A stretch of DNA of 64,000 bases from Dehalococcoidia bacterium UBA6495 (GCA_002435305.1 DJMH01000116.1:23913-87912); one strand, 5' to 3'. Counted from the stretch's first letter, positions 9,051 through 63,638 are shown. Program-made: numbers and translations. Notes: generated by a model from the letters alone, not told the origin.

Positions 9051-9452
9051 GATATTTATCTTTCTATCGTATCGGTAGGTTATCAGAAAGATTACCTACA
9101 ATTCATCTGTTTCAAATTAAGACTGTAAACACACCATTTTTAACCTAGTCACGGGAGACAGTTACGGAATATAATCCTCACATATATTTCATGAAACTGT
9201 CTTCCATTCTTTTTTACATGTAGTGAGTAATTGTTAAAAAACACTTTTATTTTGGGAATGCCGTTACAATTTGGGCTGGTTGTTTTTTTTGCGGGATTGC
9301 TTGTTATTTATGTGCTAGCGATGTCAGCTTCGGCTCGGATAGAAAAACGGAAAGATGTTCGATATGAAGTAGGGCAAACGGAAATTTACACCTGGGAATC
9401 GGCAGCACTGTGGATGTGTCCTCTTCACTGAGGTTGGAGAATTCTCTCAAAA

Positions 9453-26300: not shown

Positions 26301-26467
26301 TACTTTGGCCAGACATACACAAAAAATATATGAGAGTTTTAAAAGACCCTATTATTTTGGCTACAGGAAAAATATCACGACAGGACGGTACTACTAGCGT
26401 GGTTGTATCTCATTTAGAAACCCTAGAACCGAAGATTGGATTACCTTCTGCACATAATTGGCACTAA
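23318..26467 (+). CDS. dnaE2: Error-prone DNA polymerase III alpha-like subunit DnaE2
   Basis: PHP domain 'VELHAHSFYSFGEGAS', a pol III alpha core, and a C-terminal OB region. About 1050 aa with no tau- or beta-binding tail. ATG 23318 overlaps the imuB TGA (TGATG). Confidence 0.9.
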   Translation: MYVNSKYVELHAHSFYSFGEGASHINELLTRAYELAYPAMALTDYNMCGALEFSRQSDHFGIKPITGAEIILKDNSHIVLLAKNRIGYSNISRLLTLANGSDRREPRLDPMHIPEYASGIILLTGAQNGLISNAIKEHKIERAKIVLNKYREYFEDDSIYIELNRNFMYGDSNRINSLISIGSDMKLPLVATNNVHYHIADRYKLQNALTSIRSNTNLDKLTHLLKINSEFYLKSESQMQRLFKSIPKALTNTLAISDMCEFNLSSDLGYELPSPSVPDGFTPFTYLSRLCYEAAQRRYGEVNNSVDNRLREELRLIKKHNLAGFMLLYREIVLIAREISVDMGKLDSEEPIEIRSPGRGRGSSVAMLTGYLIGISHVDPLLYNLTLERFVPEDLKTLPDIDIDFPRSIREKLIPRVHEYFGPQFAVLTGMITRYKLKGILKDLGKVFGIPDGDISNLSKKIHNLDPTSLKDEMLSIPEFKNVVDLPEWKNIISLASQLKDAPKTLGQHVGGMILSSSPISDMVPFRKSALEGRYIIDWDKDSIADAGFAKIDILSLPVLDQIDESISLIQDTTGKLVDISQVDPEDNEVFDMINTGLSKGVFLLQSPAQLKMGQRLLSRSLNDLAYQVALIRPGVGMQGNSVSQFVERYRHGIPWQYDHRLEQRALERTCGIIVWQEQVVQLISDISGIGQAESDEMRRGFAKTNNEGLIKIYWQKFVKGAIKNGVSEEIAYKIFSKINGQYMFPESHSHAFAVSAYQSAWLKTHYPLEFYVSLMNNQPMGFYPLETIKQDARKFGVDFYNPDINHSQNKCTINGNSLLIGLEFVKDIGIQNSKNIIDERDLRGPFNSVGDFIRRVQIKPDSVESLIFSGAFDSLISNRRLALWESGLYKGPSGSQITLPISMSDNIPSLADFSSYEKMILEYKAINMYPKGHIMDFVRPLLPSDVSSTYDVYSMGEGELVSVCGMGIARQHPRGHKGTIFVTVEDESSDIQLILWPDIHKKYMRVLKDPIILATGKISRQDGTTSVVVSHLETLEPKIGLPSAHNWH

Positions 26468-27157: not shown

Positions 27158-27263
27158 AATGTACACCTTAAGTATAAACCGGTTGTCCATATCAGAGGTA
27201 GCTGCTATGCAGATGTTAAAATTCTCGTTAAGTGCTTTGAACATGCACTTGGAGTGCATCGTT

Positions 27264-29660
27264 ATGCTCTATCAGTTAAAACTTCGACACCTGCTTTTAA
27301 CTACAGTTTTATATTTCTTACTCGGCACTCTAGCGTGTGGTGAATTTACGAGACATGATGAACATGATCTTGCGCAGACCTCTAATCCAATCTCTAGCCC
27401 AGGTTCTCCCGTTGCTCCGGGAAGCATATTCAACTCACGAATTTACCACACAGCCACTTTTTTAAGGAGTGGGAAAATTTTGGTCGTGGGAGGTGAATCC
27501 AATAACGGAGGTATAAGTTCCCTTGAAATATATGACACCGAAAATGGTAGCTGGGTTAATGGACAGTCATTGCCAAATCCTAGATTTGGGCATACCGCCA
27601 ATCTCATTGGTAGAGAGTCGGTATTAATCGCAGGAGGGGAGGATGGGGAAAATCCAACGGCATCTACAGTTGTATACAATGCAAATACCGACACGTGGAC
27701 TTCTTCTTTAGATATGCTACAGCCCAGAACGAAACACGCATCCTCCATTCTCACAGATGGGAGAGTAATTGTAGTTGGAGGCACCAATAGTTCGGGAACT
27801 CTTTCTTCCGCAGAAATATATGACCCGGTTCTTCAACACTGGACATCTTCAGGAGAATCTCTTTTGCCAAGAATCGGTCATTCGGTAACTGCATTGAAGA
27901 ATGGGATGATATTAGTGGTTGGTGGCAAGATACCAATAGAGAAATCAAATCAGAATTCCCTATTACTGTGTGAAAATTCAAATGAGGCTCCTCCGTCAGC
28001 TGGGGTAACTAAGGGATATCGTTGTAAGGATGGCGCTGCGGTCTTAACTGAGATTTATGACCCAACTAACAATAGCTGGAAAGAATCCTCCTCTCTGTTG
28101 ACCCCCCGATGGGGACATACTGCTACTTTGCTCGAGGACGGTAGAGTCCTCGTGGCTGGCGGAACAAATAATTATTCGTCTGTTGTCGAGTCTGAAATTT
28201 TTGATCCCAACACTGAAACCTGGGTGTCAGCAGGGGAAATGTTATATGAAAGAACTGGCCATACTGCTTCTTTACTTTCTGATGGAAGGGTTTTGATAGC
28301 TGGTGGTTTTACGTACGTACCGATCAGTTACTCCGAAATTTATGATGCGAAAAAAGGTTGGGTGAAAACTGAAAACCTAATGGGCCCTAGACACTTGCAT
28401 TCCGCTGTTCCTCTAAATGACGGGCAAGTTTTAATAATTGCTGGCAAGGCAGGCCTGTTTACTAATTTAACGAGAATAGAACTCTACGATTCTGACTCAG
28501 GTTCTTGGAGTATAAAAGGAAAAATGCCTGTTGCTTTATGGGGTCACACAGCAATTCCTTTGGACTGTGAAAATGTACTAATAGTTGGAGGCAAACGAAA
28601 TGACGGTAGTTCTTTTAATTTAGCATATTTGTTTGACCCAACCACTGGCGGATACCAAACGACAGGGAAAATGAATGTACCTAGATTTGGCCACTCAGCT
28701 ACCAAAATTACAGATGGGTCCGTGGTAGTAGCTGGCGGATACATTAATCCTTCATTTCAATCAGATTCAGTTGAGATTCTAAAGCCTAATAAATTCGGTT
28801 CTTATGAGTGGGTCCCCGCTAAGTCGATGCCGATACCTCTTGAGCGGCATTCGGCTATTTATATTGGAGGAAGGAAGTTATTTCTCACCGGTGGTTGGAA
28901 CGGTTCAAGTGCTGCCTCAAATACGTGGATTTTCGATTTCGATAACAATTTATGGGATATTGGCCCTCCAATGAAAGATGCGAGATGGGGTCATTCAATG
29001 GTTCGGCTTGATGACAAAACCGTTTTGATCTCGGGTGGTGTGGGCGACGATGGGTCACCGTTGTCGTCGGTTGAAAAATACGATTCAATTAATTCTACTA
29101 TGGAGTTGTTGTCTTCCATGCAAGAAGCTCGTAGTGGCCACAGGCTTCTTAAAGACAAAAATGGGGATGTTTATGCGATTGGTGGATATGGTTCCGAGGG
29201 GACTTCTTTGCCGTCATTCGAAAAATTTCGCGTAAATTTCAATCAATGGAATAAATTACCTGATATGTCAGAAGCCAGGTCACACCATTCCGCGATAATT
29301 CTTAAGGATGAAAATATTCTCATCACTGGGGGAACCCGGGACTATAACAGCCCTTCAGGTACTGCAGAATTATTTGATATGAAATCTGGGCAATGGAAAT
29401 CGGCCGGAAGTATGAGGGAAGCTAGGATGGGTCATGTGTCTTATCAGTTTGATAGTAAAAATGGGTTTAACTGCCCCGATTTTAATACTCATGGCGAGGT
29501 ATTTATCATGGGTGGATATGGCCTCAGTGCAATGGACTCTGTAGAGGTTTATAGGCCAGGTGGGGGAGGTTGGTCCGCCTTTGAGTCTATCGTTCGAGGT
29601 TCTACAAAGGATAATTTCATCAGGTTAGTGAGGGGAATATCGCAAAATTGGCATCGTTAA
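27264..29660 (+). CDS. Exported Kelch-repeat protein (about 14 Kelch motifs, two predicted beta-propellers)
   Basis: Signal peptide 'MLYQLKLRHLLLTTVLYFLLGTLAC'. Fourteen recurrences of 'PR(x)GH(T/S)A..L.DG.VLV.GG'. ATG 27264 is preferred over the track start at 27159. Confidence 0.85.
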   Translation: MLYQLKLRHLLLTTVLYFLLGTLACGEFTRHDEHDLAQTSNPISSPGSPVAPGSIFNSRIYHTATFLRSGKILVVGGESNNGGISSLEIYDTENGSWVNGQSLPNPRFGHTANLIGRESVLIAGGEDGENPTASTVVYNANTDTWTSSLDMLQPRTKHASSILTDGRVIVVGGTNSSGTLSSAEIYDPVLQHWTSSGESLLPRIGHSVTALKNGMILVVGGKIPIEKSNQNSLLLCENSNEAPPSAGVTKGYRCKDGAAVLTEIYDPTNNSWKESSSLLTPRWGHTATLLEDGRVLVAGGTNNYSSVVESEIFDPNTETWVSAGEMLYERTGHTASLLSDGRVLIAGGFTYVPISYSEIYDAKKGWVKTENLMGPRHLHSAVPLNDGQVLIIAGKAGLFTNLTRIELYDSDSGSWSIKGKMPVALWGHTAIPLDCENVLIVGGKRNDGSSFNLAYLFDPTTGGYQTTGKMNVPRFGHSATKITDGSVVVAGGYINPSFQSDSVEILKPNKFGSYEWVPAKSMPIPLERHSAIYIGGRKLFLTGGWNGSSAASNTWIFDFDNNLWDIGPPMKDARWGHSMVRLDDKTVLISGGVGDDGSPLSSVEKYDSINSTMELLSSMQEARSGHRLLKDKNGDVYAIGGYGSEGTSLPSFEKFRVNFNQWNKLPDMSEARSHHSAIILKDENILITGGTRDYNSPSGTAELFDMKSGQWKSAGSMREARMGHVSYQFDSKNGFNCPDFNTHGEVFIMGGYGLSAMDSVEVYRPGGGGWSAFESIVRGSTKDNFIRLVRGISQNWHR

Positions 29661-32600
29661 ACTTTTTCTCCCTAGTTGTAAGGCGATCATTCAATGACCG
29701 CCGTCTCATTTTACCCATATTATCAGGCATGCTCGTGGCTACTACCTTGATGTCTTCCGCACCAATGTATCTGGCCGCTTTGGATCAACAGGGAATAAGG
29801 CAGACAGTAGATTTAACTACCAGAAATGAGTCTGAAAATTATCTGGCACTGGAAATGTTCGTGTCTTCGATGGTTCTGGATGAGGAACGCATTGTTCATT
29901 CAGATGAACTGATACAGCAAGCTGTGAACCTGTATTGGTCAGAAGCGATTGTTGGTTTAAACCGGTACCTGAAAACGGATGGGTTTAGTTTCTACAGGTC
30001 ATCGGGATCGGCAATAAGGGACCTAGAGAATAGCTCCATTAGATCACTTGAGGGGTATTTTCACAGTTTTCAGGATGTGGAGGGAAAGGTTGATTACATC
30101 GTAGGATCATCACCAACTTCCGATTTCCAATACCATCCAGATGGGCCGTTACTAGAGGTTTCGCTCTCTACAGATCTGGCGGAAAAACTGTCAATTGAAC
30201 ACGGGGACGTTTTACTGGGGGTTCCCTATCCTGATAGCAGAATCAAATTGGGCGTTAGAGTGAGCGGAATTTTTGAGCCTCTGGATCCATATGACCCCAT
30301 CTGGAAAGACGATATAGATAGATTCTTAATGCCTGTGATTCCCAAAGAAGAAGGCTCTGAAGTGCCTGAAAATTGGTGGGAGGACCAAACATATTATCTG
30401 GCTTTTTTTATATCTGAAGAAGCTATGATGAATTCAATTCCGCTGGCCTACCCAGGGTCGATGGTCGAGGCACGTTGGGATCAGCAAATCGATAACCTAA
30501 TTTTAAGAGAATGGACTAGGGCTGAAATCGTCAGTTCCATTGATGGTCTTGAAGGATTGCTTACTAAAGAAATACCGGGGTTTCAACTTAGATCTGGGAT
30601 AATTCTGATGTTAAAGGAATTTAAAACCCAAAGTTTTTTTTCCAGCATTCCTCTGTTGTTGCTTTTTGCTGTGATAGGTTCTTCCCTTTTATATTTCGTA
30701 TTTATGATAAGTTCATACCTCATGCCGGCCAGAGAATCAGATATCTCTCTAATAAAGATCCGAGGCGCTTCCCGGTTCGCTGTTTTTAGGCAATATGGGT
30801 TGGAAGGGCTTTTGTTATTTTTGGCCTCAATCATCTTCGCCCCAATTCTTGCCTTCTGCCTCGTATCCTTGTCGGGTATATTGCCTTATTTTCACAATAT
30901 TTCAGATGGTAAATTATTGCCGACAACGTTGTCGTGGACTCCTTTTATACTCTCATTTGGGTTTGGAGGATTATGTCTCATCGCTTTTTTATTACCTCCT
31001 ATTTTACGAACTTCAGGAGGAATAGTTACTAGGCGACGTCATTTAGGCAGGCCTGAATCTGTGACCTTTATTCAAAAGTATTATCTTGATTTGGCCTTTA
31101 TGTTCATTTGTTTTGTTCTCTTGTATGAAATTAAGGCCAGAGGGCAGCTTTCATCAGGAGGGCTAGAAGGAGTTTCCGGTATAAATGAGGCTTTGTTATT
31201 TGCTCCGATTTTGCTGCTCTTTTCTGTGGCTATGTTGTCTTTCAGAATATTTCCTATCCTCGTTAAATTTATGACGGGAGAATCTTCAAGTCTCGTCTTG
31301 TTAATGGGTACTCTTTCTGTAATATCTTTGTTATTAAACATTTTTTACGATCTGTTAACTGATTCAGATAAATTGGGGTTGTTATTACCAGTATTTGTTT
31401 TCCTACTATTTTTAATTGGCATGTTGGCCTGTTTTAAAGTATCAAATAAATACAGCAAACTTATTTCTTTTACTTTTATGCTAGGGGCATCATTGATATA
31501 CGGGTTTTATGCTTCTGAAGGAGATGTCATACCTTTCTCTCTTACAAAATGGATTTTGGTTTTTTCCAGTGCGCTGACAGGCATTTTCTTTTTATTGAGT
31601 AGCATCAAAAAATACTACCCACCTTGGATATCTCTTATGCTGTGGAATATGTCCCGGAACCCTTTACAGTACACGTGGTTAGTCGTTCTTTTGGTATTGT
31701 CATCTGGGGTGGCGGTATTATCGGCTACATTGGGGTCAACCTTAGATCATAGTTATAGGGATAAAATCGCCTACGATGTAGGGTCCGACGCAAGGATAGT
31801 TCTCTCTTCGCTTGGGTCAGCAGGCCGAATTCATTCCGTCCCTAGCCTCTCCAATTTTTTTGACAACCTTTCAGGCGTGCATAAATTTTCAAAAGCGAAG
31901 AGAGGTATTGGAAATATTGGCCAGGGAGCGGGCTCTTTTACATTTGATTATTTAGCTTTTGAAACAGATAAAATTACCTTATGGGGCAGGGAAGATTTTT
32001 CGGCACAGCCGACTGATATTCTGCTCGCTGATATGTCAAGTGAAGTAAAGGTTCCAGCCATTGAGATACCCATCGGTACGACAGAGATAGGTATAAATGT
32101 AAAGCCTGACTCAAATTACCCACTCGTATCTTTATGGTTGATACTAAGAGATGCGAATCTTAAATATAAAGTTATAACACTGGGTACACCTGCTCCCTTC
32201 AGGTGGTCGAAGAACAAAGCCGCGATTCCGGACTCCCTCGCCGAACCTATTCAGTTGGTTTCGGTACAAATAAGCGAGCCAGGCCTAGGCGCATCAGGTA
32301 CCCCCGGGAAGATGCTTTTTGATGATTTGTTTGCTATTTTGAACGGTGAAGAGGTCATATTGGAGGATTTTGAAGATTATTCTGAATGGGTGGTCATTCC
32401 TACCTCCACCGGGCCAGGTGATTCCATTTCCATTCAAGAGGACGCTGCTGTATCAGGAAGGTATGGATTCTCATTCGAGTTTGGAAAAGAGAGGAACAAT
32501 GGGGTAAGAGGTTTATTTTGGGGAACCTATGGATCATATCTGCCTGTCCTTGTGAGTCAAACATTTATTGACAATAGCGGATTTGGATTTGGAGACTATT

Positions 32601-33322
32601 TATTAGTTGATATCTCGCAAACTCTAGTTATCAGCAAAATAACAGGTGTAGTAGATTTTTTCCCAACGCTAAATCCTGGAACCGCGGGATTCTTGATTGC
32701 AGATCTTGATGCTGTTATGTATTTATCTTCCCTGACTAACCTGTATGCTCCGAGCTCTGTGAACGAGATTTTTCTGGACCTAAATGATTCAGTTGATGAC
32801 ACGATGACTGCCATTTCCAACGAAGTTGGGAAAGGAGGACAAGTCTATGCGACCAGAGGGTTATTAGAAAAATTAGACAATGACCCTCTTATCTCAGCAG
32901 GATGGAAATTGATGTCATTAATTTCCATCACAGTTGCTCTTTACGTAGCAGTTCTTGGATATTTTATTCATATGATCTTTTTGTCAGGCCAAATTAAATC
33001 TAGAATGGGTACCTTACGATCCTTAGGCATGACGTTATCGCAAAGTTTTAGAATGATTCTTGTTGAGCAGGTTCTAATAATTCTCTTGGGTGTATGTTTA
33101 GGAAGTTGGACAGGGGTGGGTATGACCCGTCTCATGGTTTCAGCAATTACAACTACGGACAATGCTGCCCCCTTGGTTCCTCCTGCCTTAATCACGATGG
33201 ATTCCTTCTCATTATTGATATGTGCTGGCATATTTTTGATCCTATTTATGTTTATGGTCATATGGATCAGTTTTTATTTTTTCCGATTGAATCTTGGGAC
33301 TTTGTCCAGGTTGGAAAATTAA
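29648..33322 (+). CDS. Giant FtsX-domain (MacB/YbbP-type) permease with two FtsX modules
   Basis: 1224 aa. The N-terminal TM is followed by a large extracytoplasmic domain, then FtsX helices ('ARESDISLIKIRGASRFAVFRQYGLEG'). A second extracytoplasmic domain precedes a C-terminal FtsX module ('MGTLRSLGMTLSQSFRMILVEQ'). TTG start overlaps the Kelch gene by 13 nt. Confidence 0.8.
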   Translation: MASLNFFSLVVRRSFNDRRLILPILSGMLVATTLMSSAPMYLAALDQQGIRQTVDLTTRNESENYLALEMFVSSMVLDEERIVHSDELIQQAVNLYWSEAIVGLNRYLKTDGFSFYRSSGSAIRDLENSSIRSLEGYFHSFQDVEGKVDYIVGSSPTSDFQYHPDGPLLEVSLSTDLAEKLSIEHGDVLLGVPYPDSRIKLGVRVSGIFEPLDPYDPIWKDDIDRFLMPVIPKEEGSEVPENWWEDQTYYLAFFISEEAMMNSIPLAYPGSMVEARWDQQIDNLILREWTRAEIVSSIDGLEGLLTKEIPGFQLRSGIILMLKEFKTQSFFSSIPLLLLFAVIGSSLLYFVFMISSYLMPARESDISLIKIRGASRFAVFRQYGLEGLLLFLASIIFAPILAFCLVSLSGILPYFHNISDGKLLPTTLSWTPFILSFGFGGLCLIAFLLPPILRTSGGIVTRRRHLGRPESVTFIQKYYLDLAFMFICFVLLYEIKARGQLSSGGLEGVSGINEALLFAPILLLFSVAMLSFRIFPILVKFMTGESSSLVLLMGTLSVISLLLNIFYDLLTDSDKLGLLLPVFVFLLFLIGMLACFKVSNKYSKLISFTFMLGASLIYGFYASEGDVIPFSLTKWILVFSSALTGIFFLLSSIKKYYPPWISLMLWNMSRNPLQYTWLVVLLVLSSGVAVLSATLGSTLDHSYRDKIAYDVGSDARIVLSSLGSAGRIHSVPSLSNFFDNLSGVHKFSKAKRGIGNIGQGAGSFTFDYLAFETDKITLWGREDFSAQPTDILLADMSSEVKVPAIEIPIGTTEIGINVKPDSNYPLVSLWLILRDANLKYKVITLGTPAPFRWSKNKAAIPDSLAEPIQLVSVQISEPGLGASGTPGKMLFDDLFAILNGEEVILEDFEDYSEWVVIPTSTGPGDSISIQEDAAVSGRYGFSFEFGKERNNGVRGLFWGTYGSYLPVLVSQTFIDNSGFGFGDYLLVDISQTLVISKITGVVDFFPTLNPGTAGFLIADLDAVMYLSSLTNLYAPSSVNEIFLDLNDSVDDTMTAISNEVGKGGQVYATRGLLEKLDNDPLISAGWKLMSLISITVALYVAVLGYFIHMIFLSGQIKSRMGTLRSLGMTLSQSFRMILVEQVLIILLGVCLGSWTGVGMTRLMVSAITTTDNAAPLVPPALITMDSFSLLICAGIFLILFMFMVIWISFYFFRLNLGTLSRLEN

Positions 33323-36300
33323 GTGATGAAGATGGAGGGGCTTGCGAAAATTATTAGGGTTTGGCCCCTGATAGTAAGACGATTGATAGTTAATTGGAGA
33401 ACCCTGTCTACTGTAATCATTGGGGTAGTTTTGGCTTGTTCGATTATGTCTGGCACCGTGGTATTTTTCGATTCACTTAAAGAGATAGCACTGGATGATG
33501 TTCTTAAATCCCTAGATAAGGAAGAGATAAACATATTGGTGCAGGCTGAAAAAGGTCCAACTAACGCTGACGAAGCCTCAACTTTGAATGAAAGGATCCA
33601 TTCTTTTTCCGAAGGATTGCTTTCTTCTCATGTTAGTGAAATTTTACATGGGGGAAGAACCACAACCCTTTTCTTTAGTTACCCGGGCCAGGAACAAAAT
33701 GCAGGGAAAGATAATTCACGGACATTTTTCGCGTACCTACCAAACTTGCAGCCCCATATAACCATTACGGATGGAATTTTTGGGGGAAATGGGCTCGGGG
33801 AATTAACATCAGAAGAGATTTCTGTTATTAAAGTATTAGTAAATGTCCAGGATGCGGCAAATTTTGGACTTCAGGTCGGTGATCGCATATCAGCAGTGCC
33901 TTATTGGGACGATTCTGTTTCCCATGTGACAGCGGAAGTTGCTGGAACCTTTGAAAAAAATAACCAAGATGATTTGTATTGGTCTATTGAACAAAAAGGA
34001 TTCATGTATTCAGCCAGCGATTCGTTCAAAACTATTCCGTTGTATTTGAATGAGGATGTCTATATGGAACACCTTGCCTCAAAATTCCTTGATTTAGAAA
34101 CCACCTACGTTTGGATGTTTGATATAGACAGGGAAAGTATAAATTCCTCAAATGCCTCGAATTTGGCGTCGAATATAACCTATTTTGGGAACCGATTAGA
34201 ATCAGAGTTAAACAGGTTCGTCATTCGCACTGAGCTAGATAAGTCTTTGCAAAAATACGACACCCGTATTTTGTTCACGAAACTTCAAATGTATGTTGTC
34301 CTGATAATGATCACCTTTGTCGTGCTTTATTACGTGGTGGCACTCTCTTCACTGGTAGTCGAAGAGAGACGTTTTGAGGTTTCCAAGCTCAGGAGTAGAG
34401 GTGCTAGCTCGTCACAAATATTGAGTGTATTTGTAATTGAAGGAGCTACCATCTCATTTTTCGCCACTTTGCTTGGCCCACTAATTGCTGTAGGCGGAAT
34501 CAGCCTGTTGGGATTTTTGCCAGGGTTCCATGAAATTAATGATGGTGCTTTTCTTTCTGCTCGGTTAACTTATCAAGCCTTATTTATGAGTATATTGGGT
34601 GGCATTTTAAGTTTTCTAGCTTTAATGATTCCATCTATCCAAGCATCAAGGTTGACGGTGTCTGACGAAAGAACCAAATCGAACAGGCCTAATCGACTCA
34701 CGTTTATATCTCGATACTACATTGATGTCATAGTCCTAATAGTTTCTTTATTTTTATTTAATCAATTGAATGAGCAGGGTTCGATGGCAGCACGGGGGGT
34801 TTTGGGCGATGTTAAGGTCAATCAAATTATGTTAGCTGTCCCAGCCATTATGTTGATTGCTTCCGCTCTGGTTATATTGAGGATATTTCCACTTGTCATG
34901 AGCATTGCAAGCCGGGTGTTATCTAGGTATTTACCAGTTGGTATTACTTTGATCATGTGGCAAATTTCACGTAACCCTTCTAATTATTCAAGACTGCTTT
35001 TACTTTTAATTTTGATGACAGGGCTTGGTATTTTTGTCTCTAGTTTTGGTGGAACCCTCAATAAGAATTTTGAAGACCGTGTTTACTATTCCCATGGCTC
35101 CGATATCAGGCTAAGTTCAGTTTCACTTAATCCCAGAGGGAGAAGTAAACCCCTCACAAAGGGAATAGAATCTATAAATGGCGTGTCGACCGTTAGCCCG
35201 TCCGTTCGATTGATAGGGACTGATGTAACAAAAACATTTGGATCTGACTCTATAACTGTCCTGGGTATCGATACTGATCAGTTTGAACAAAGCGCGTGGT
35301 ATAGAGACGATTTCTCAGAATCTTCATTATCAAAAATTTCCGATACATTGCAAGATACCGATACCAAAGGAATTGAATTGCCGGATAGGTCCCGATCATT
35401 TGGAGTATTGGTTAAATCCGACAAAAGTAGGCCGACTACGGTGTTGGTAGCTAGAATGAAAGACAAAAATGGCAGATATTTGTCATACGATTTAGGTAGT
35501 TTGGATAGTGGGGGATGGACTCTGAAGCAAGTGGAAATTTTCGGTAATAGAGGAAGATTTCAAGTGTTTCCGGCTCGACCCCTGACATTGATATCGATAG
35601 GTATAGTTGAAACTATTCCTCAAAAAAAATTAACTTCCGGTTCCATTTTGATAGATAGTGTGAGGGTAAGATTGTCAACCGGCGAAGTGGTTAATTTGGA
35701 AGATTTCAGGGATATTAACGGTTGGCAAATAATAGATTCATCAATCTCATCCGCAAATGATAGGTTAGGAATTTCAGAAATAAGTGCGAAATCAGATTCT
35801 TCAGCCTTTTTTACCTGGTCTGAAGGTCCTCCAATTACGATGCGAGGCATTTATCCTTCTACGAAATTTAAACCTATTTCCGCCATTGTTAATTCCGATT
35901 TCTTAATTAACTCCCGATATTCTTTGGGTGATCAGCTAAAGTTATCAATAGGTGGTCTGCGAATTGATGTGGTATTGCGTGATAAAGTCAAGTATTTTCC
36001 TACAATCAATCCTACCGAGGACGATTTTATAGTAGTTGGATTGGACCCACTGATTCACCGGCTTAATATCAGCTCTTTGTTTGGAAGTACCGATCCAAAC
36101 GAGTTTTGGATTGATTACGAGGACGGAATTACAAATGAAACCAAGATGGGCCTTAAAGAGGAGTTGATTAATGATCCTTCTTTTCCCTACGGCAAATTAT
36201 GGGATACAGAATCCATGCTTGAGATCAATCGTGTTGATCCCTTAGTCAAAGCTGGCTGGCATGCAATATTGGTAATCGCCTTTGGTTCAATTTTGCTTTT

Positions 36301-36679
36301 AAGTGCGATCGGATTTTTTTCTCATGCCTATATATCATATAGAAACCGGCGGTTCCAGTTCGCGTTACTTAGAACCCTTGGGTTTTCTACTCGTCAGCTT
36401 ATAACAACTATTTGGGTGGAACAGGTTTTAATAATTACGCTAGGAATGATCGTTGGAACCTGGATGGGAGGAAGGTTATCTGAGGCGGTTATGCCGTTTT
36501 TGAGTAGTGATGATTATGGCAATCAGGTAATTCCACCGTTTGTGATACAAGTAGATTGGGTTAATCTAATGATAACTTATGCGGCGATGATCCTAATTTT
36601 TGCTGCCGTCATAGGATCCCTGATTTTCTTAGCACGGAGACTCGTATTAAACAAAATGTTGAGACTTGGGGATACTTAA
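33323..36679 (+). CDS. Giant FtsX-domain permease, paralog of the preceding gene
   Basis: 1118 aa with the same architecture ('RRFEVSKLRSRGASSSQILSVFVIEG' and 'RFQFALLRTLGFSTRQLITTIWVEQ'). It starts directly after the upstream TAA; GTG 33323, ATG 33326 and ATG 33332 are possible starts. Confidence 0.8.
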   Translation: MMKMEGLAKIIRVWPLIVRRLIVNWRTLSTVIIGVVLACSIMSGTVVFFDSLKEIALDDVLKSLDKEEINILVQAEKGPTNADEASTLNERIHSFSEGLLSSHVSEILHGGRTTTLFFSYPGQEQNAGKDNSRTFFAYLPNLQPHITITDGIFGGNGLGELTSEEISVIKVLVNVQDAANFGLQVGDRISAVPYWDDSVSHVTAEVAGTFEKNNQDDLYWSIEQKGFMYSASDSFKTIPLYLNEDVYMEHLASKFLDLETTYVWMFDIDRESINSSNASNLASNITYFGNRLESELNRFVIRTELDKSLQKYDTRILFTKLQMYVVLIMITFVVLYYVVALSSLVVEERRFEVSKLRSRGASSSQILSVFVIEGATISFFATLLGPLIAVGGISLLGFLPGFHEINDGAFLSARLTYQALFMSILGGILSFLALMIPSIQASRLTVSDERTKSNRPNRLTFISRYYIDVIVLIVSLFLFNQLNEQGSMAARGVLGDVKVNQIMLAVPAIMLIASALVILRIFPLVMSIASRVLSRYLPVGITLIMWQISRNPSNYSRLLLLLILMTGLGIFVSSFGGTLNKNFEDRVYYSHGSDIRLSSVSLNPRGRSKPLTKGIESINGVSTVSPSVRLIGTDVTKTFGSDSITVLGIDTDQFEQSAWYRDDFSESSLSKISDTLQDTDTKGIELPDRSRSFGVLVKSDKSRPTTVLVARMKDKNGRYLSYDLGSLDSGGWTLKQVEIFGNRGRFQVFPARPLTLISIGIVETIPQKKLTSGSILIDSVRVRLSTGEVVNLEDFRDINGWQIIDSSISSANDRLGISEISAKSDSSAFFTWSEGPPITMRGIYPSTKFKPISAIVNSDFLINSRYSLGDQLKLSIGGLRIDVVLRDKVKYFPTINPTEDDFIVVGLDPLIHRLNISSLFGSTDPNEFWIDYEDGITNETKMGLKEELINDPSFPYGKLWDTESMLEINRVDPLVKAGWHAILVIAFGSILLLSAIGFFSHAYISYRNRRFQFALLRTLGFSTRQLITTIWVEQVLIITLGMIVGTWMGGRLSEAVMPFLSSDDYGNQVIPPFVIQVDWVNLMITYAAMILIFAAVIGSLIFLARRLVLNKMLRLGDT

Positions 36680-52442: not shown

Positions 52443-53225
52443 CTAACTATCCTTGATGACGGGATTACTAAGTGTGCCTACACCTGAAATCTCAATTTCA
52501 CAGGTATCTCCATTTTTCATATCCTTGGACGTACCATCGGTTCCCATCCAGATTACGTCTCCAGGGTGTAAAGTTAGGTACCTGGTAATTTCCGATATGT
52601 ATTTTTCTACTCCAAAAATCATGTCGTTAGTTTCAAACGAAATGGTTTCCTTACCATTAAGTCTGACGGTTGTCACCATGTCATCGAGGGTTGCGTCAGT
52701 TTCAATCCAAGGTCCCATAGGCTTAAACGTGTCAGTATTTTTGGCACGCCATAAAGTTCTATCAGAGGCTTGCCATGTTCTCTCGCTGACGTCATTACCC
52801 ACCGTATACCCCAAAACATAATCTAGGGAATCCTCCATTGAAACATTTTTGGCGACTTTGCCGATAACCACTACCAGCTCAGCTTCGTAATGAATTTTAT
52901 CTGTTGCATCCTTGGGTATGACTATGGGATCTCCATGGCCTATGATTGCATTATTGGCTCTATATCCTATATCGGCCTTTTCAGGTAAATTGGGTTCCCT
53001 GTTCAGTAGAGACGCTGCCTCTAAGACATGTTTTTTGTAATTTACCCCCGCGGCGTAGAAAGTTTTCGGTATAACTGGAGGTAATATTTTCACCTCTTCA
53101 ATCGGGATTTTTTGATTGGTTTGCTCATACCCGTCAAATGGTGACCCATGAACTTTGGATACGGTATTATCGTTCAAGAAACCGTAGAACGGCTCATCTT
53201 TTGTCTGGCACCTCAGCCATCTCAT
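52443..53225 (-). CDS. Fumarylacetoacetate hydrolase (FAH) family protein
   Basis: 'YEAELVVVIGK', 'GYTVGNDVSER', 'KNTDTFKPMGP'. Confidence 0.85.
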   Translation of the reverse strand: MRWLRCQTKDEPFYGFLNDNTVSKVHGSPFDGYEQTNQKIPIEEVKILPPVIPKTFYAAGVNYKKHVLEAASLLNREPNLPEKADIGYRANNAIIGHGDPIVIPKDATDKIHYEAELVVVIGKVAKNVSMEDSLDYVLGYTVGNDVSERTWQASDRTLWRAKNTDTFKPMGPWIETDATLDDMVTTVRLNGKETISFETNDMIFGVEKYISEITRYLTLHPGDVIWMGTDGTSKDMKNGDTCEIEISGVGTLSNPVIKDS

Positions 53226-54337
53226 ACGCTTAACTCCTCGTCTATTTTGTCTTTAAGGACAGGCAATAATTGCTCTGAAACTATGTTGCATTCAGTAACA
53301 TGAGGGAATCCGGACAATATAAACTCATCTATTCCAAGCCGCCAGTAGCTGAGCAGTTCTTCTGAGACCTGTTCCACATTTCCGACAATGGCTGTCCCGC
53401 AATTCACTCGAACATTGGATATGCCATTCCATAAATGTCTGCCCATTTTGTCATTTTCATATTGTTGGGTTTGAGATCTTTGACCTACCATACTGGTGTT
53501 TTTGGAGGACTTAGCCCTTTGTCTCAAAACAGATTCAGAAGTTTGAGATAGTAGTTCATCGGCAATTTCCCATGCTTCTCTTTCGGATTGTCTGACTATT
53601 AAGTGAGTTCTTAAACCGAAACGAGGAGATCGTCCTTTATCCATATACTTCTTTCGCGCTTTTTTCAGATGGGGCTCCAAGGTCTCCTGGGGAAGAATCC
53701 ATGCCAAATATGTATCAGCCTTATCGGCCGATAAATTCAGCGCAGCCTCCGATGCCCCGCCCAGATAAAATGCTGGGTTACCCTTTGGGCCAGGAGAACA
53801 AACTGCTCCGTTCAGATGAATGAATTCACCATTAAATTTAATTGCCTCTGGTTTCTCCCATAGTTTTTTGCAGGCAGATATGAATTCAGAAGCTCTTTCG
53901 TATCTAGTGTCGTGATCGGTCTTTTCTCCCAATCTTTCCATATCCCCCTCTATTCCACCTGGAACTATATTCAGATCTAACCTTCCACCTGAAATTTGAT
54001 CCAGCGTGGCTGCCATTTGTGCGAATAACCCTACCGATATGAATCCAGGTCTTACCGCAACTAGGAATCTTATTTTTTCTGTGACTGAAGCTAAAGCGGC
54101 AACTGTTGTCCAGGTCTCTGCAAGAGGAGCGTTTTCGTCAAAGAGACCGTTTGAAAATCTGGTAGGCACAAGGAGGGAGTAAAATCCGCTTTTTTCTGCC
54201 GTGAGCGCCACTTTTTTGAGGTAATCAAATGTTGGAGGGATTTCTGCCTTGTCTGTGCCTATATGCTCCCCATCTCCATCGATAGGTATGAACCAATCAA
54301 ACTTAGGTTTGCCGCGCGGTTCAAATATCTCTGACAA
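53222..54337 (-). CDS. LLM-class flavin-dependent monooxygenase (SsuD/SfnG-like)
   Basis: 'FDWFIPIDGDGEHIG', 'FLVAVRPG', 'ISGGRLDLNIVPGG'. TTG start. 4-nt overlap with the FAH gene. Confidence 0.8.
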   Translation of the reverse strand: MSEIFEPRGKPKFDWFIPIDGDGEHIGTDKAEIPPTFDYLKKVALTAEKSGFYSLLVPTRFSNGLFDENAPLAETWTTVAALASVTEKIRFLVAVRPGFISVGLFAQMAATLDQISGGRLDLNIVPGGIEGDMERLGEKTDHDTRYERASEFISACKKLWEKPEAIKFNGEFIHLNGAVCSPGPKGNPAFYLGGASEAALNLSADKADTYLAWILPQETLEPHLKKARKKYMDKGRSPRFGLRTHLIVRQSEREAWEIADELLSQTSESVLRQRAKSSKNTSMVGQRSQTQQYENDKMGRHLWNGISNVRVNCGTAIVGNVEQVSEELLSYWRLGIDEFILSGFPHVTECNIVSEQLLPVLKDKIDEELSV

Positions 54338-57701: not shown

Positions 57702-58994
57702 ATGAGAAGCTCTATAGGGGTTGGACTTATTGGAATGGGAGTAGTTGGATCAGGGGTAGCAAGGGTAATAACTGAAAACTCTACCGCATTGCATAGTCAC
57801 GTAGGTTTGCCATTAAAGCTAATGAAAGTAGCAGTTCGTGATACCTCGAAGCAAAGAGAATTCATGGGTGCTCAAAATATTTTAGGAGATAATCCTGAAG
57901 AATTAATAAATGATGAATCAGTAAATATTGTGGTGGAATTGATGGGTGGTGAACATCCAGCATTGGAATTGATTCTGGCAGCGGTAAAAAATGGGAAACA
58001 TGTAGTAACTGCGAACAAAGAAGTGATATCAAAACATGGCGCTGATATATTTTCCTTGGCTAGAGAGAATAACGTCAGAGTACTTTTCGAAGCAAGTGTG
58101 GGTGGGGGAATACCAATAATTTCTCCCTTGATGCGTGACTTGGTGGCTAATGACATCAAATCTATTAAAGCAATCATCAATGGAACTACCAATTATATTC
58201 TGACTCGAATGGCGAACGAACAAGCTGATTATCAGCAAGTGCTACAGGAGGCCCAAAAATTGGGCTATGCTGAATCAGATCCAACCAGTGATGTAGAGGG
58301 AATAGATGCGGGATATAAATTATCGATATTGTCTACCTTAGCCTTCAGGGCTAGCGTGAAAAACACTGATATATATACGGAAGGGATAACTAACCTTACT
58401 GATAAGGATTTTTTATATGCTAAAGAATTAGGATATTCGATAAAGCTGTTAGCTATAGCTACCCGAACCGGTTCTAGTGTACTAGGAAGAGTTCATCCTG
58501 CTTTGATCCCAGAGGATCAAATGCTGGCCAAGGTCGATGATGCTCTGAATGCCGTGGAAGTAGAGACAGATTTGGTAGATAAAGTATTGTTTCATGGCCC
58601 AGGCGCAGGCTCTATGCCGACGAGTAGTGCCGTAGTGGCGGATATCGTCAATATTGCCCGAACCATTGCTGGTGGTACTGATTTACTAGACCCGGTCCAG
58701 TTATCTGAGGAGATAGAGATAAGATCAATAGATACGTTGATAACCAAATACTATTTTAGACTTGAAGCTGAGGATCAACCAGGAGTACTTGCTAGAATTG
58801 CTGCTGTTTTCGGAGATTGCGGGATCAGCATTTCATCTTTTATCCAAAAGGGATTGGGTGATCAATCTACAAATGCTGAACTGGTCATTATGACTCACGA
58901 GGCCAATGAAAGTTCTGTAACGCGGGCTGTATCGAGCTTAAGGGAATTAGATGTCGTGAGAATGATAGGTAATGTGATCCGGGTGGTCGAATAA
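57702..58994 (+). CDS. hom: Homoserine dehydrogenase
   Basis: 'GVGLIGMGVVGSGV', 'VVTANK', 'FEASVGGGIPII', 'GYAESDPTSDVEG', and a C-terminal ACT domain. Confidence 0.95.
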   Translation: MRSSIGVGLIGMGVVGSGVARVITENSTALHSHVGLPLKLMKVAVRDTSKQREFMGAQNILGDNPEELINDESVNIVVELMGGEHPALELILAAVKNGKHVVTANKEVISKHGADIFSLARENNVRVLFEASVGGGIPIISPLMRDLVANDIKSIKAIINGTTNYILTRMANEQADYQQVLQEAQKLGYAESDPTSDVEGIDAGYKLSILSTLAFRASVKNTDIYTEGITNLTDKDFLYAKELGYSIKLLAIATRTGSSVLGRVHPALIPEDQMLAKVDDALNAVEVETDLVDKVLFHGPGAGSMPTSSAVVADIVNIARTIAGGTDLLDPVQLSEEIEIRSIDTLITKYYFRLEAEDQPGVLARIAAVFGDCGISISSFIQKGLGDQSTNAELVIMTHEANESSVTRAVSSLRELDVVRMIGNVIRVVE

Positions 58995-59019
58995 TCGCTT
59001 TTTATCGTTGGAGGTTTGC

Positions 59020-59364
59020 ATGCAGCATTTGTTGTTTTACGGGTGGAATCGTTGAAGTAGCTGTACAAAAGCGAAGGCGGAGCTTTCGCAGGCTGGATTT
59101 GACTGTGAAATAAGAGATTTTTTCAAGGATCCCTTTTCTTTGGATGAACTTCAGGATGGTTTATTAGGAGATGATCCATCTGAGCTATTTTCTTGGAGAA
59201 GCCCCTCTTTTAAAAAGTTAGGTTTGGAAAAATCAAATATGTCTGTCTCTGAAATGTTGGATCTAATGATCGCAGAACCTAGGTTAATCAAAAGACCTAT
59301 CGTAATGTATCAGGGCAAAAGATTTGTAACTTCGGAATGGAAAAAGATTTTGAGGTCGGACTAA
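59020..59364 (+). CDS. ArsC/Spx/YffB-family thioredoxin-fold protein, predicted selenoprotein (UxxC; UGA at 59053-59055 read as Sec)
   Basis: GGAGG (59010-59014), 5 nt, ATG 59020. The sequence reads MQHLLFYGWNR-[TGA]-SSCTKAKAELSQAGFDCEIRDFFKDPFSLDEL..LIKRPIV with no other stop. The TGA aligns with the first Cys of the family CxxC motif, and a hairpin follows 15 nt downstream. Confidence 0.7.
59059..59094 (+). promoter_or_regulatory. SECIS-like stem-loop downstream of the in-frame UGA
   Basis: The upper stem 59071-59078/59082-59089 has 8 bp including one G.U, with a GGA apical loop. The lower stem is 59059-59062/59091-94. The loop starts 23 nt after the UGA. Confidence 0.5.
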
Positions 59365-59366
59365 AT

Positions 59367-60173
59367 ATGATTAATTTGTCTGGGAAAGAAGCTATAGTCA
59401 CGGGTGCAGGGAGCGGTATAGGTAGGGGTATATGCTCGGTTTTGGCCTTGGCAGGGGCAAATGTGTTAGTGACAGATATATCTGGGAAAGGCGCAGAGGA
59501 TACACTAAAACATTGTGGTTACGGTGATAAATTTAGAGCAAGGCAAATGGATGTTACTAATGAAAATTCAATTGATGAAATTATTTCAGAACACATCAAG
59601 GATAGAAAAAAAATTGATATATTGGTCAACAATGCCGGAATAATCGGATCTGAAGGTTGGTCGAATAGAGAAATTCCGAATAGTCAAGACTGGACCGAAG
59701 TATATGAGGTTAATGTAAGAGGGGTTGTAAAGGTTTCCGAAAGGGTTAGCAAAGAGTTTCAGAACCAGAAACGCGGCAAAATTATTAACATTGCTTCAAT
59801 AGCCGCTCGGCAGGGAAGTCCAGATTCACCACATTACAGTACTTCAAAGGCGGCAGTTGTGAGTTGGACACAATCGCATGCTTTACAAATGGCTGCATAT
59901 AATGTGAATGTAAATGCCGTTTGTCCAGGGCTCATATGGACTCCAATATGGGAATCGATCGCAAGAAAAAGATCCCAATTTGGAGGCAGTCTTGAGACCA
60001 AAGGTCTTGAAGGTAAAAAGCTTTTCGATCAAACTGTTAAAGCTTGGGTCCCGCTTCAAAGAGAGCAGACTCCGGAAGATATCGGAAATATGGTGGCCTT
60101 TTTAGCATCCGATCTCGCCGAAAATATTACAGGTCAGTCTATTAACGTGGATGGGGGTCGGTTTACCAATTAA
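59367..60173 (+). CDS. Short-chain dehydrogenase/reductase (SDR)
   Basis: 'KEAIVTGAGSGIGRG', 'NNAG', 'YSTSKAA', 'VCPGLIWTP'. ATG 59367 is preferred to the track start at 59337, which would overlap the preceding gene. Confidence 0.85.
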   Translation: MINLSGKEAIVTGAGSGIGRGICSVLALAGANVLVTDISGKGAEDTLKHCGYGDKFRARQMDVTNENSIDEIISEHIKDRKKIDILVNNAGIIGSEGWSNREIPNSQDWTEVYEVNVRGVVKVSERVSKEFQNQKRGKIINIASIAARQGSPDSPHYSTSKAAVVSWTQSHALQMAAYNVNVNAVCPGLIWTPIWESIARKRSQFGGSLETKGLEGKKLFDQTVKAWVPLQREQTPEDIGNMVAFLASDLAENITGQSINVDGGRFTN

Positions 60174-60187
60174 AATGATTGCTCGTG

Positions 60188-61723
60188 CTATTCCATAGGA
60201 TCCTTGGCCATTCTGGGTTTCACCAATAAAAGGCATGGAAATATTCCAATTAAGCAGAGTATTGCACCAATCATAAAAAAATCATGGAATAAATTTATTC
60301 CTGCTTGGATTAATAGATTTTCAAATTCCAACGTGGGGGTGCCAAAAATTCCAGTTCCAGGAATTTTTAAACCTATACCTAGTAGTAAATCTTGGAATCT
60401 TTGAGATCCCCAAGCTGATAGCGCAGCGATTCCAAAAGTCATTCCAAGGAATCGTGAAGAGCTGATTATTCCAGCTGCCGAGCCTTGGTATTGTGTACTA
60501 GAGCTGTTGATAGCGGATGTTGTAATCGGGGCTATCATCAACCCAAAGCCAAACCCTGCCACTAATAAATGATATGACATCAGTGGGTCCCCAATTAATT
60601 CGTTCCAGCGGCTCATAAACAGTAGAGCTACAAAACAAAATATAAGCCCGGAAATCGCTGGTATCCTGAGATCAAAATGTTTGCTAAGCCATCCCCCCAT
60701 CACCGCCCCTATTGGGATAGCGATTGTCATCCTCATTAGGATTAAGCCCCCTTCGAGAGAGGTGCCGGATAGGACGGTATTTACCATTAGTGGTATTGTC
60801 ACCATACTTATGATAAGGGCTGCCCCGTAGAATAAATGTAAGGTGTTCGCGGCTAGGAATGGGACGTTTTTAAATAGGTCAATTGGTACGACGGAATTAT
60901 CGTTCTGCTTTGATAGCAGGTAGTAACCGATTAACAAAGATACCCCCACAGATACAAAAATTACCAAAAATGATGTGTTACTTCCAGATTGTGAGCATCC
61001 CAATGTGATAAAGCAGATCGCGGCGACTATTATGCCTGAGCCAAGGTAATCTATTTTATGCGCGATGCCCTTAGAGTTAGGGACAAGAAATAAAATCCCC
61101 GCTATTACGAGTAACCCGATTGGTATGTTTAACCAAAATACCCACTGCCATGAAAAAAACTGAGTGATTATTCCTCCCCATAAAGGACCTGTAACTGCGC
61201 CTGCTTCTGCGGATGCCCCGGTCAATCCCAAAGGGATAGCTCTTTCCTTGCCTGAATAAAAATCACTAATGATTGCTATCGTAATTGGGATTAAGGCGCC
61301 AGCCCCGACAGCTTGGATTATTCGAGTGCCAATAACCCAGTTTATGGAGCTTGTGACTTCTAAAATGCCGGATACACAGCTTCTGATTAAAGTACTGTCA
61401 TGGTAGGAATAAGATTCCAAGAACCCCATGGAATTAGTCAATCCTGTACCAACCGATCCCAGCATAAAAACCGACATAGAAGCTACGTAGATAAATTTGC
61501 GTCCATATATGTCGGAAATTCTGCCCATAATAGGCATTACAGATACGTATCCTAATAGGTAACCTGTAACTGTCCACATGGCCTTATCCAGTTCTGCCAC
61601 ATCCACCATTAAATCCGACATTATCTGGGGAAGTATCGTTACGATTACAGTTTGATCGTCGGCAGCAAAAAATATACCTGCAAAAACAGGGATCAGAGCT
61701 ACGGTTTTGTTGGAAATTTTCAT
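60188..61723 (-). CDS. MFS transporter, DHA2 (14-helix, EmrB/P55-like)
   Basis: 511 aa, 'AADDQTVIVTILPQIMSDL', about 14 helices. It lies immediately downstream of the LprG-like gene. Confidence 0.8.
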   Translation of the reverse strand: MKISNKTVALIPVFAGIFFAADDQTVIVTILPQIMSDLMVDVAELDKAMWTVTGYLLGYVSVMPIMGRISDIYGRKFIYVASMSVFMLGSVGTGLTNSMGFLESYSYHDSTLIRSCVSGILEVTSSINWVIGTRIIQAVGAGALIPITIAIISDFYSGKERAIPLGLTGASAEAGAVTGPLWGGIITQFFSWQWVFWLNIPIGLLVIAGILFLVPNSKGIAHKIDYLGSGIIVAAICFITLGCSQSGSNTSFLVIFVSVGVSLLIGYYLLSKQNDNSVVPIDLFKNVPFLAANTLHLFYGAALIISMVTIPLMVNTVLSGTSLEGGLILMRMTIAIPIGAVMGGWLSKHFDLRIPAISGLIFCFVALLFMSRWNELIGDPLMSYHLLVAGFGFGLMIAPITTSAINSSSTQYQGSAAGIISSSRFLGMTFGIAALSAWGSQRFQDLLLGIGLKIPGTGIFGTPTLEFENLLIQAGINLFHDFFMIGAILCLIGIFPCLLLVKPRMAKDPME

Positions 61724-62537: not shown

Positions 62538-63638
62538 TTATGTTCTGTTCCTCGAAAGGATAACAGAGCCAACTCCTACCATCGCGATGCCAAGTAGGCA
62601 TGACAGTAACATAAGATCTCTAATTATTTTTTCCCCAACGCTTGGTAGCCCAAGCCCTAATACACTACCGCCGCCGCCAGCACCTGCCACGGTTGCTATT
62701 TTACTTCCTGGGAGATCCTTAGCTTCTAAGGTTAGAGTGGCCATTTGCTGAGCGCTAGCTCTAGCCTGCGCAACCCCTCCCTCTCCGGTAGAGGAAGAAA
62801 TGGATCCATCTGTATTTGCATCCCAGCCATTCCTGGCTGCCGAAAGTTCGTTGAAAATTTTCCCAGCAAAAATATTTGCCACGGATGCACTGGTTTGGGA
62901 GGCGATGTCGTTGTCCGCAGTAGCTTTTGCAGCATTAACCCACGATGAAATGTTAGCTGCAGAGGCTATTACCCCAGCAGCCCCTTCAGCCAGATTGCTA
63001 TCTTCAACATCTTCAGCAGCTGCGGCGGTGACGTTAGCTCCTAAGCCGTCGGCGAGACCGCTAATCGTGGAGGCATCCGCAACGGCACTAGCTATCTCAG
63101 TTTTTACCTCATCAATGTCGGATGACGATTGTGCGGAGAAAGCGCTAGCTATTGCTGCTGCTAAATGCGCGTCTATGCTGTTTATATCAGCCATTGCGTT
63201 ATTGATATAAACGGCAGCATTTACTGGTACGTTATCACTATAGGCCGTAGATCCACCCGACCCGTTCGTTAATTTAATCCGGCTATAGCTTACTAAAAGA
63301 TCTTGGCCGTCATATCCTGCCGAAGTACTGTCGTAAACGAAATTTATGTTTCCAGTTGCTTGGATAACACCTTGAATAACTGGTTGGACTACAGATAGCT
63401 CTCCTAAATCCAGAGACTTAGTACCATCTGATGATACGAGCACTGCATTATATGCACTACCTTCGGCAGGAGGAGCAACCCCCGACATTGAAACGACTAA
63501 GGAGTCGTTAACAGCCTGATCATTCGTTACTACGGCTGTACCGTAAGTCACAGCATCGGATTCTGCAAAGACTACTGTCGGTATTAGAAACGACACCATC
63601 AATGCGGTTATGATTATTAATGTCTTGGTCCTGAACAT
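62538..63638 (-). CDS. Ala/Ser-rich secreted protein with C-terminal membrane anchor or sorting-signal-like tail
   Basis: Signal peptide 'MFRTKTLIIITALMVSFLIPTVVFA', a low-complexity Ala-rich core, and the C-terminus 'LPSVGEKIIRDLMLLSCLLGIAMVGVGSVILSRNRT'. Confidence 0.6.
   Translation of the reverse strand: MFRTKTLIIITALMVSFLIPTVVFAESDAVTYGTAVVTNDQAVNDSLVVSMSGVAPPAEGSAYNAVLVSSDGTKSLDLGELSVVQPVIQGVIQATGNINFVYDSTSAGYDGQDLLVSYSRIKLTNGSGGSTAYSDNVPVNAAVYINNAMADINSIDAHLAAAIASAFSAQSSSDIDEVKTEIASAVADASTISGLADGLGANVTAAAAEDVEDSNLAEGAAGVIASAANISSWVNAAKATADNDIASQTSASVANIFAGKIFNELSAARNGWDANTDGSISSSTGEGGVAQARASAQQMATLTLEAKDLPGSKIATVAGAGGGGSVLGLGLPSVGEKIIRDLMLLSCLLGIAMVGVGSVILSRNRT

Follow-up and report, generated by a model that had tools for sequence, protein, structure and literature searches.

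Does the UGA codon that interrupts an ArsC/Spx-type reading frame in Dehalococcoidia bacterium UBA6495 end a gene, or is it decoded as selenocysteine (Sec)? The codon lies in a window of 64 kb, by which we mean the whole stretch of DNA that was analysed (64,000 nucleotides). An earlier reading made from this DNA alone (the sequence-only reading) had proposed a hidden selenoprotein gene, in which the UGA takes the place of the first cysteine of a CxxC motif. Comparison with related genomes leads us to conclude that this is very probably a genuine Sec-decoding selenoprotein gene. The features of the gene itself are the following.

59010-59014, + strand: Shine-Dalgarno (SD) sequence GGAGG, with a 5-nt spacer to the start codon
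59020-59364, + strand: full coding sequence (CDS) of the predicted ArsC/Spx-family selenoprotein, 114 aa, from the start ATG at 59020 to the stop TAA at 59362-59364
59053-59055, + strand: in-frame UGA, predicted selenocysteine codon U12, at the first-Cys position of CxxC
59062-59064, + strand: TGT encoding Cys15, the putative resolving Cys of the U-S-S-C motif, invariant in alignment A3 and aligned with Spx Cys13
59140-59364, + strand: TTG-initiated fragment of 74 aa, the gene callers' substitute for the real gene and the sole call in the mechanical ORF list

The reading frame and its product

The coordinates that the sequence-only reading had given for these features and for the core hairpin described below are all correct, base for base. 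From the ATG at 59020 the frame passes through eleven codons (MQHLLFYGWNR), meets the TGA at 59053-59055 and goes on as SSCTKAKAELSQ, the next stop being the TAA at 59362-59364; the 102 sense codons that lead from the TGA up to this TAA read SSCTKAKAELSQAGF...LIKRPIV.... When U is replaced by C, the product (114 aa) matches the Pfam family ArsC (PF03960) over residues 7-101 with E=5.9e-16, scoring 59 bits vs a gathering cut-off of 24, which bears out the ArsC/Spx-type product of this length that had been proposed. A PDB search returned B. subtilis Spx as the best match among solved structures (E~1e-10). In the alignment to these Spx structures U12 falls on Cys10 and C15 on Cys13, and the TGA is thus located exactly on the first Cys of the Spx CxxC, as had been claimed from an alignment by eye.

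The CDS including its TGA is base-identical across four independent ocean metagenome assemblies, one of them from TARA, and the TGA is therefore not a sequencing error. In the window 14 of the 54 long reading frames terminate at TGA; since TGA serves these frames as an ordinary stop, the genetic code is standard and has not been reassigned.

Conservation of the UGA and its flanks

Scanning one genome from each species gave 426 relatives; the analysis covers the best 80. All of these 80 are Dehalococcoidia, SAR202 or Chloroflexota MAGs, with identities of 43-93%. TGA occupies the Sec column in 80/80 orthologous loci, while TAA, TAG, a sense codon or a Cys codon was found in 0/80. The sequence is conserved on both sides of the TGA, with the consensus (F/Y)Y.W.(R/K)-U-(S/T/N).C(R/K)K across the 80 loci, and the Trp codon upstream of the TGA is invariant in the orthologous loci. 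An ATG or GTG start is situated 10-13 codons 5' of the TGA, preceded in nearly all 80 loci by an SD-like GGAGG or GAGGTG, and coding conservation in the 80 loci extends over the full length of the gene. Two full-length Cys homologues were also recovered, with TGT (L081) and TGC (L082) at the Sec column.

One database protein, P0032 (L083:243-587), displays a W at the Sec column (FYCWVKWNTC). The DNA at this position is TGA and the hairpin stem is present in the locus, and a Trp at the Sec column of P0032 was therefore rejected as a translation-table artefact. Evidently a translation table that assigns TGA to Trp had been used for the gene call; on look-up, the L083 locus does not translate to the P0032 query.

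If the TGA were a nonsense mutation or an assembly error, the locus would be a pseudogene or a truncated gene that yields no more than the C-terminal 74 aa, and this fragment is all that gene callers report. The identity of the four independent assemblies and the presence of TGA in 80/80 species speak against such decay, as does the purifying conservation of the 11-13 upstream codons, of the Trp codon and of the SD and start; the upstream segments of the orthologues are free of frameshifts and random stops. Moreover, a fragment that begins at residue 41 would be devoid of strand beta1, the redox motif and helix alpha1. We regard a pseudogene as exceedingly improbable.

A conserved hairpin downstream of the UGA

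A stem-loop follows the UGA within the coding sequence, and comprises two parts.

59071-59089, + strand: predicted bacterial SECIS core, an 8-bp stem (59071-59078 with 59082-59089) and a GGA loop (59079-59081)
59058-59095, + strand: extended stem-loop with a weak lower stem (59058-59062 with 59091-59095), MFE -11.8 kcal/mol in the window

The core hairpin has the sequence GCGAAGGC-GGA-GCUUUCGC (59071-59089), with a gap of 15 nt from the UGA to the stem and 23 nt from the UGA to the loop. Published rules for bacterial SECIS (bSECIS) elements specify a loop of 3-9 nt, a stem of 4-16 bp, a G in the first two loop positions, a UGA-loop distance of 16-37 nt and an MFE <= -7.5 kcal/mol (PMC13188914). 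With a 3-nt loop, an 8-bp stem, a distance of 23 nt and a hairpin-alone energy of -9.8 kcal/mol, the window hairpin satisfies every one of these constraints (PMC13188914), in agreement with the earlier proposal that its position and G-containing loop fit the bacterial model. Across the relatives the hairpin-alone energy has a median of -8.6 kcal/mol and is <= -7.5 kcal/mol in 74/80 loci.

The single-sequence folding statistic is not unusual (z = -1.08 for 61 nt of the window), and it is on account of the comparative evidence, not of the single-sequence fold, that the hairpin is considered more than chance. In the ungapped alignment A2 (80 loci, 77 distinct sequences), 98.1% of the upper-stem cells are paired, as against 31-56% in a slid control in which the 3' partners were moved by 1-3 columns. 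Compensatory double changes occur in 4/8 stem pairs (e.g. U-A in 39 vs C-G in 30 sequences, A-U in 52 vs G-C in 24), and RNAalifold independently predicts the same helix. The hairpin stands at a fixed distance from the TGA in 80/80 loci, and its apical loops (GGA, GUC, GUU, GGC, GUG and GGG) have G first and G or U second in 80/80. Kept with covariation in the TGA orthologues and present in the TGA-bearing L083 (-8.3 kcal/mol), the stem is missing from the same stretch of the Cys-codon homologues (L081 0.0 and L082 -1.9 kcal/mol; n=2 Cys genes). The lower stem is a different matter: the sequence-only reading had placed it at 59059-59062/59091-59094, and while the upper stem stands as described, the lower one forms one base wider (59058-59062/59091-59095). 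Across the relatives 63.9% of its cells are paired and its inner pairs fail in most sequences. A conserved lower stem was rejected on this ground (~64% paired); the structure is confined to the window and to sequences closely related to it.

Could the hairpin be something other than a SECIS element? It might be the by-product of a conserved peptide, or else an attenuator, terminator or ribosome pause, with an 11-aa leader terminated by the UGA and separate translation of what follows. The stem does overlap strongly conserved codons, and no Rfam family reached E = 10 at the hairpin, a null result which says little about SECIS identity because bacterial SECIS sequences vary from gene to gene (PMC13188914). 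However, no terminator call, T-run or promoter was found at the hairpin or, in the case of T-runs, 3' of the stem, and no start codon preceded by an SD lies between the UGA and residue 41. The compensatory double changes keep the pairing while the loop codon switches amino acid (E vs S), and the Cys forms retain a similar peptide but lose the stem. A role of the hairpin other than as a SECIS element is highly improbable, and as an invariant, covarying predicted SECIS it would constitute a clean example for the Chloroflexota.

The peptide that the stem encodes, K(A/V)(K/R)A(E/S)LSQ (A2 columns 28-46, window 59071-59089), is unusually conserved in the Sec forms, and the corresponding region drifts in the Cys homologues (KAKKYLQQ, QAKAFLGQ). 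This difference suggests that RNA structure constrains the protein sequence over the stem-encoded segment. Part of the nucleotide conservation of the hairpin could in turn stem from constraint on the protein, although both the compensatory changes and the comparison with the Cys forms speak against such an origin.

Genomic context and the decoding machinery

The gene is flanked on the same strand by two genes assigned with Pfam.

57702-58994, + strand: homoserine dehydrogenase (hom), upstream neighbour, its stop 25 nt before the ATG at 59020
59367-60173, + strand: short-chain dehydrogenase/reductase (SDR), downstream neighbour, its ATG 2 nt after the TAA, syntenic in 41 loci

Given this 2-nt distance on the same strand, the selenoprotein gene and SDR are probably co-transcribed. 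Neither a terminator-like site nor a + strand promoter-like site was found between hom, the selenoprotein gene and SDR; one antisense promoter-like match falls within the last part of hom. About 45/80 loci retain the block rpsF-ssb-rpsR-(SurA-like)-hom-(selenoprotein gene)-SDR, and in another group of loci the selenoprotein gene directly follows rpsR. Judging from the retained block, Dehalococcoidia/SAR202 seem to have inherited the gene vertically, as a core gene within a housekeeping block and not as part of an island.

The search for the Sec machinery around the gene gave negative results. ARAGORN detected no tRNA-Sec, either in the window itself or in the DNA around the 80 loci (~1.4 Mb in total), and phmmer, run over both sets with a hand-entered E. 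coli SelD sequence as query, detected no SelD. Nor did selA or selB turn up in either set. A Pfam scan of 29 window ORFs revealed no sel gene, and no window ORF has the size of SelB. No second Sec candidate stands out among the TGA-interrupted genes of the window, and a crude scan of the flanks of the loci for other conserved Sec genes, a weak negative, returned antisense artefacts only. In BSepDB, the ten bacteria richest in selenoproteins include Dehalococcoidia MAGs (PMC13326102).

These results have to be weighed against the possibility that read-through or recoding places Trp, Cys or Gly at the UGA, by way of a suppressor tRNA, a code change in the lineage or near-cognate read-through stimulated by the hairpin. 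The lack of Sec machinery in the window and in the flanks of the 80 loci would be in line with recoding, and so would the W of P0032 if it were not a translation-table artefact at a TGA codon. Yet TGA stops 14/54 long frames of the window, and the position in question is that of the nucleophilic Cys of CxxC, so that the redox site would be lost with Trp or Gly. Recoding is equally at odds with the hairpin, which fits the rules of a SelB-type SECIS with its invariant G followed by G/U and its fixed 23-nt spacing, and with the wealth of selenoproteins in this class (PMC13326102). We consider recoding very unlikely; Sec is the residue that we infer to be inserted at codon 12.

Systematic mis-annotation

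An in-frame UGA that is very probably read as Sec leads gene callers to shorten the gene to a fragment, and the expectation of the sequence-only reading that it would be annotated in this way is borne out in the databases. A protein search retrieved 148 homologues, about 145 of which are shortened to 74-99 aa and start just past the CxxC. The exact 74-aa fragment recurs in public assemblies, TARA among them (271 blocks), and it is always called as a fragment (loci L084-L087), with a 145-nt uncalled gap between hom and the fragment call. The organism is thus widespread and the mis-call systematic. Since no NCBIfam model reaches its cut-off for the clade, annotation pipelines will go on mis-calling the gene. 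The model NF041106 describes a different subfamily, and annotation that relies on it will therefore not rescue the gene.

Other features of the window

The gene content of the window is that of a SAR202 genome, with many MFS transporters, luciferase-like monooxygenases, an enolase-superfamily enzyme and an amidase, a set which is presumably typical of SAR202 paralogue expansions. Six MFS transporters are encoded at 687-1889, 4301-5569, 9453-10772, 14184-15434, 15591-16931 and 60188-61723, two luciferase-like monooxygenases at 16928-17998 and 53222-54337, the enolase-superfamily enzyme at 13009-14109 and the amidase at 10789-12207.

A 57-aa ORF with a hydrophobic N-terminus (9258-9431, + strand) lies in a 400-nt gap directly before the MFS gene at 9453-10772; it ends in ...WMCPLH followed by TGA and has no Pfam match. 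The TGA looks like an ordinary stop because an SD and an ATG come after it. The TGA-joined pair at 9231-10772 was accordingly rejected as a Sec gene, the small ORF ending normally before the MFS gene, of whose transporter it may encode a small membrane partner.

An ImuB-like ORF (impB/mucB/samB; 21849-23318, + strand) runs into the 5' end of a DnaE-type polymerase III alpha ORF (23297-26467, + strand), and together they look like an imuB-dnaE2 error-prone polymerase cassette. Further downstream, a Kelch-repeat protein of 833 aa (27159-29660, + strand) is followed by proteins of 1224 aa (29648-33322, + strand) and 1118 aa (33323-36679, + strand), whose only Pfam matches are FtsX-like permease domains. 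A 366-aa ORF at 62538-63638 (- strand) has no Pfam match; its position downstream of LprG-like and MFS genes is kept in 15 related loci.

Fold, family placement and proposed mechanism

The fold was assessed on an AF2 model of the Cys homologue P0030, which is 43% identical to the window protein (pLDDT 92.1). The model superimposes on Spx, YffB and ArsC with TM scores of 0.77-0.84. Strand beta1 comprises residues 4-9 and helix alpha1 residues 14-25; the Sec-equivalent Cys is located between them, and the first helix begins one residue after this equivalent of U12. As modelled, the product has a thioredoxin-like fold and belongs to the ArsC/Spx/YffB superfamily.

Within the superfamily, hhalign of the family profile gives a probability of 99.4 over 113 columns for Spx and of 98.4 over 98 columns for R773 ArsC. 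None of the curated models is reached: TIGR01617 (Spx/MgsR) scores 58.9 bits vs a cut-off of 75.05, TIGR00014 (ArsC) 47.3 bits vs 106.05 and NF041106 14.5 bits vs 85. Membership of NF041106 was rejected on this score; the best E-value to that model among 21 members of the family is 2.4e-9. The window protein is hence a predicted UxxC selenoprotein of the ArsC/Spx superfamily that we file neither as Spx nor as arsenate reductase, because the Gly52 and the C-terminal tail of Spx are missing and all curated NCBIfam cut-offs are missed.

The proposed mechanism is as follows. Translation would start at the ATG at 59020, and the UGA at 59053 would be decoded as selenocysteine by SelB.GTP.Sec-tRNA(Sec), the SelB complex being recruited by the predicted SECIS hairpin at 59071-59089, in the coding sequence just 3' of the UGA. 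The product would act as a selenol/thiol oxidoreductase, in which Sec12 attacks an oxidised substrate and Cys15 resolves the intermediate via a selenenylsulfide, which a thioredoxin-type reductant would then reduce. This chemistry of Sec12 and Cys15 is put forward by analogy with the CxxC paradigm of thioredoxin-fold proteins.

Comparison with known systems

Spx/MgsR (TIGR01617; PDB 1Z3E, 7F75) is the closest characterised relative by sequence and fold (TM 0.77-0.83). The Spx redox pair C10-T-S-C13 and U12-S-S-C15 of the window protein occupy matching positions, and both proteins have an R-S motif at residue 60 as well as an RRP motif. Spx uses Cys where the window protein has a predicted Sec; Spx is found in Firmicutes whereas the window protein belongs to the Chloroflexota. 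In B. subtilis, Gly52 of Spx is required for alpha-CTD binding, and the C-terminal tail is used by YjbH/ClpXP. The window protein has Asp52, in a variable stretch, at the position of Gly52, and with 114 aa compared to the 131 aa of Spx it is missing the 15-17 residues of the tail. The closeness to Spx in sequence and fold, with the U/C pair exactly at the Spx switch, is the basis of a reading in which the protein is not an enzyme at all: it might be a Sec-containing, Spx-like redox sensor that binds RNA polymerase, i.e. a selenoprotein transcription regulator that is Sec-fixed in Dehalococcoidia/SAR202, with its gene beside the rpsF-ssb-rpsR housekeeping block. Since neither the Gly52 contact nor the tail is present, the protein would have to engage RNA polymerase in another way than Spx does. 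We deem such a regulator possible but unlikely.

A comparably unlikely function is that of a Sec-containing arsenate reductase, as the published label 'Arsenate reductase 2' would have it, in place of a general selenol/thiol oxidoreductase. The membership in Pfam ArsC is in its favour. R773 ArsC (TIGR00014; PDB 1I9D) has the same fold, and, in an alignment with a hand-entered ArsC sequence, its nucleophile Cys12 falls on U12 and its Arg94 on R92, with Arg60 two residues out of register. However, this alignment ends before Arg107, a position at which the family consensus reads G-x-D-K-K. Where ArsC has C-x-x-S, the family of the window protein has an invariant second Cys as in Spx. TIGR00014 stays at 47 bits vs its cut-off of 106, and the family profile is nearer to Spx (99.4, 113 columns) than to ArsC (98.4, 98 columns). 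No ars genes are found nearby, and the gene is situated in a housekeeping block. The general selenol/thiol oxidoreductase remains our preferred function.

Sec-containing ArsC-like proteins have been reported from marine metagenomes before, as the sequence-only reading had stated. The Sargasso Sea survey described Sec-containing arsenate reductase homologues with a UxxS motif (PMC1088965). This 'Arsenate reductase 1, UxxS' (PMC1088965) differs from the window protein in having UxxS where the latter has UxxC, and the UxxS sequences of the GOS survey (HNP-U-GSS...) are clearly unlike it in motif. NF041106, the 'ArsC family (seleno)protein', shares UxxC and the ArsC superfamily with the window protein but forms a separate subfamily; it appears as 'Arsenate reductase-like protein, UxxC' in the literature (PMC13188914).

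The closest precedent is found in the GOS survey of Zhang and Gladyshev (2008), which lists 42 sequences of 'Arsenate reductase 2, cd03032, UxxC' as predicted selenoproteins (PMC2398784), and whose supplement holds a matching sequence. JCVI_READ_1318105 (MIYYTWNK-U-STCKK...EPRLIRRP) is 41% identical to the window protein over 108 aa, gapless and at full length, with E=3e-31 and U on U. The 'Arsenate reductase 2' family and the window protein, both marine, have the common motif YYTW.K-U-STCKK ... RSPS ... EPRLIRRP; the former was assigned to cd03032, and the closest family found for the latter is Spx. 'Arsenate reductase 2' is heterogeneous, with members such as JCVI_READ_17177 showing no real similarity to the window protein; these unrelated members probably represent NF041106.

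The window gene is an added member of this published family of predicted selenoproteins, and its novelty is low, the 2008 study of ocean metagenomes having described the family already. The gain for biology is correspondingly modest, namely one more selenoprotein gene, with strong comparative evidence, in an abundant deep-ocean lineage. The GOS publication is based on reads only, without taxonomy, synteny or SECIS covariation (PMC2398784). What the present analysis adds to it is the assignment to SAR202/Dehalococcoidia, a predicted Sec codon that is fixed in 80/80 species and accompanied by a covarying SECIS, and a measure of how far the mis-annotation reaches. The Spx-like UxxC protein thereby emerges as the predicted product of a core, Sec-only gene in 80/80 of the Dehalococcoidia/SAR202 species sampled, with Spx as its nearest characterised counterpart and the GOS 'Arsenate reductase 2' sequences as its nearest published kin.
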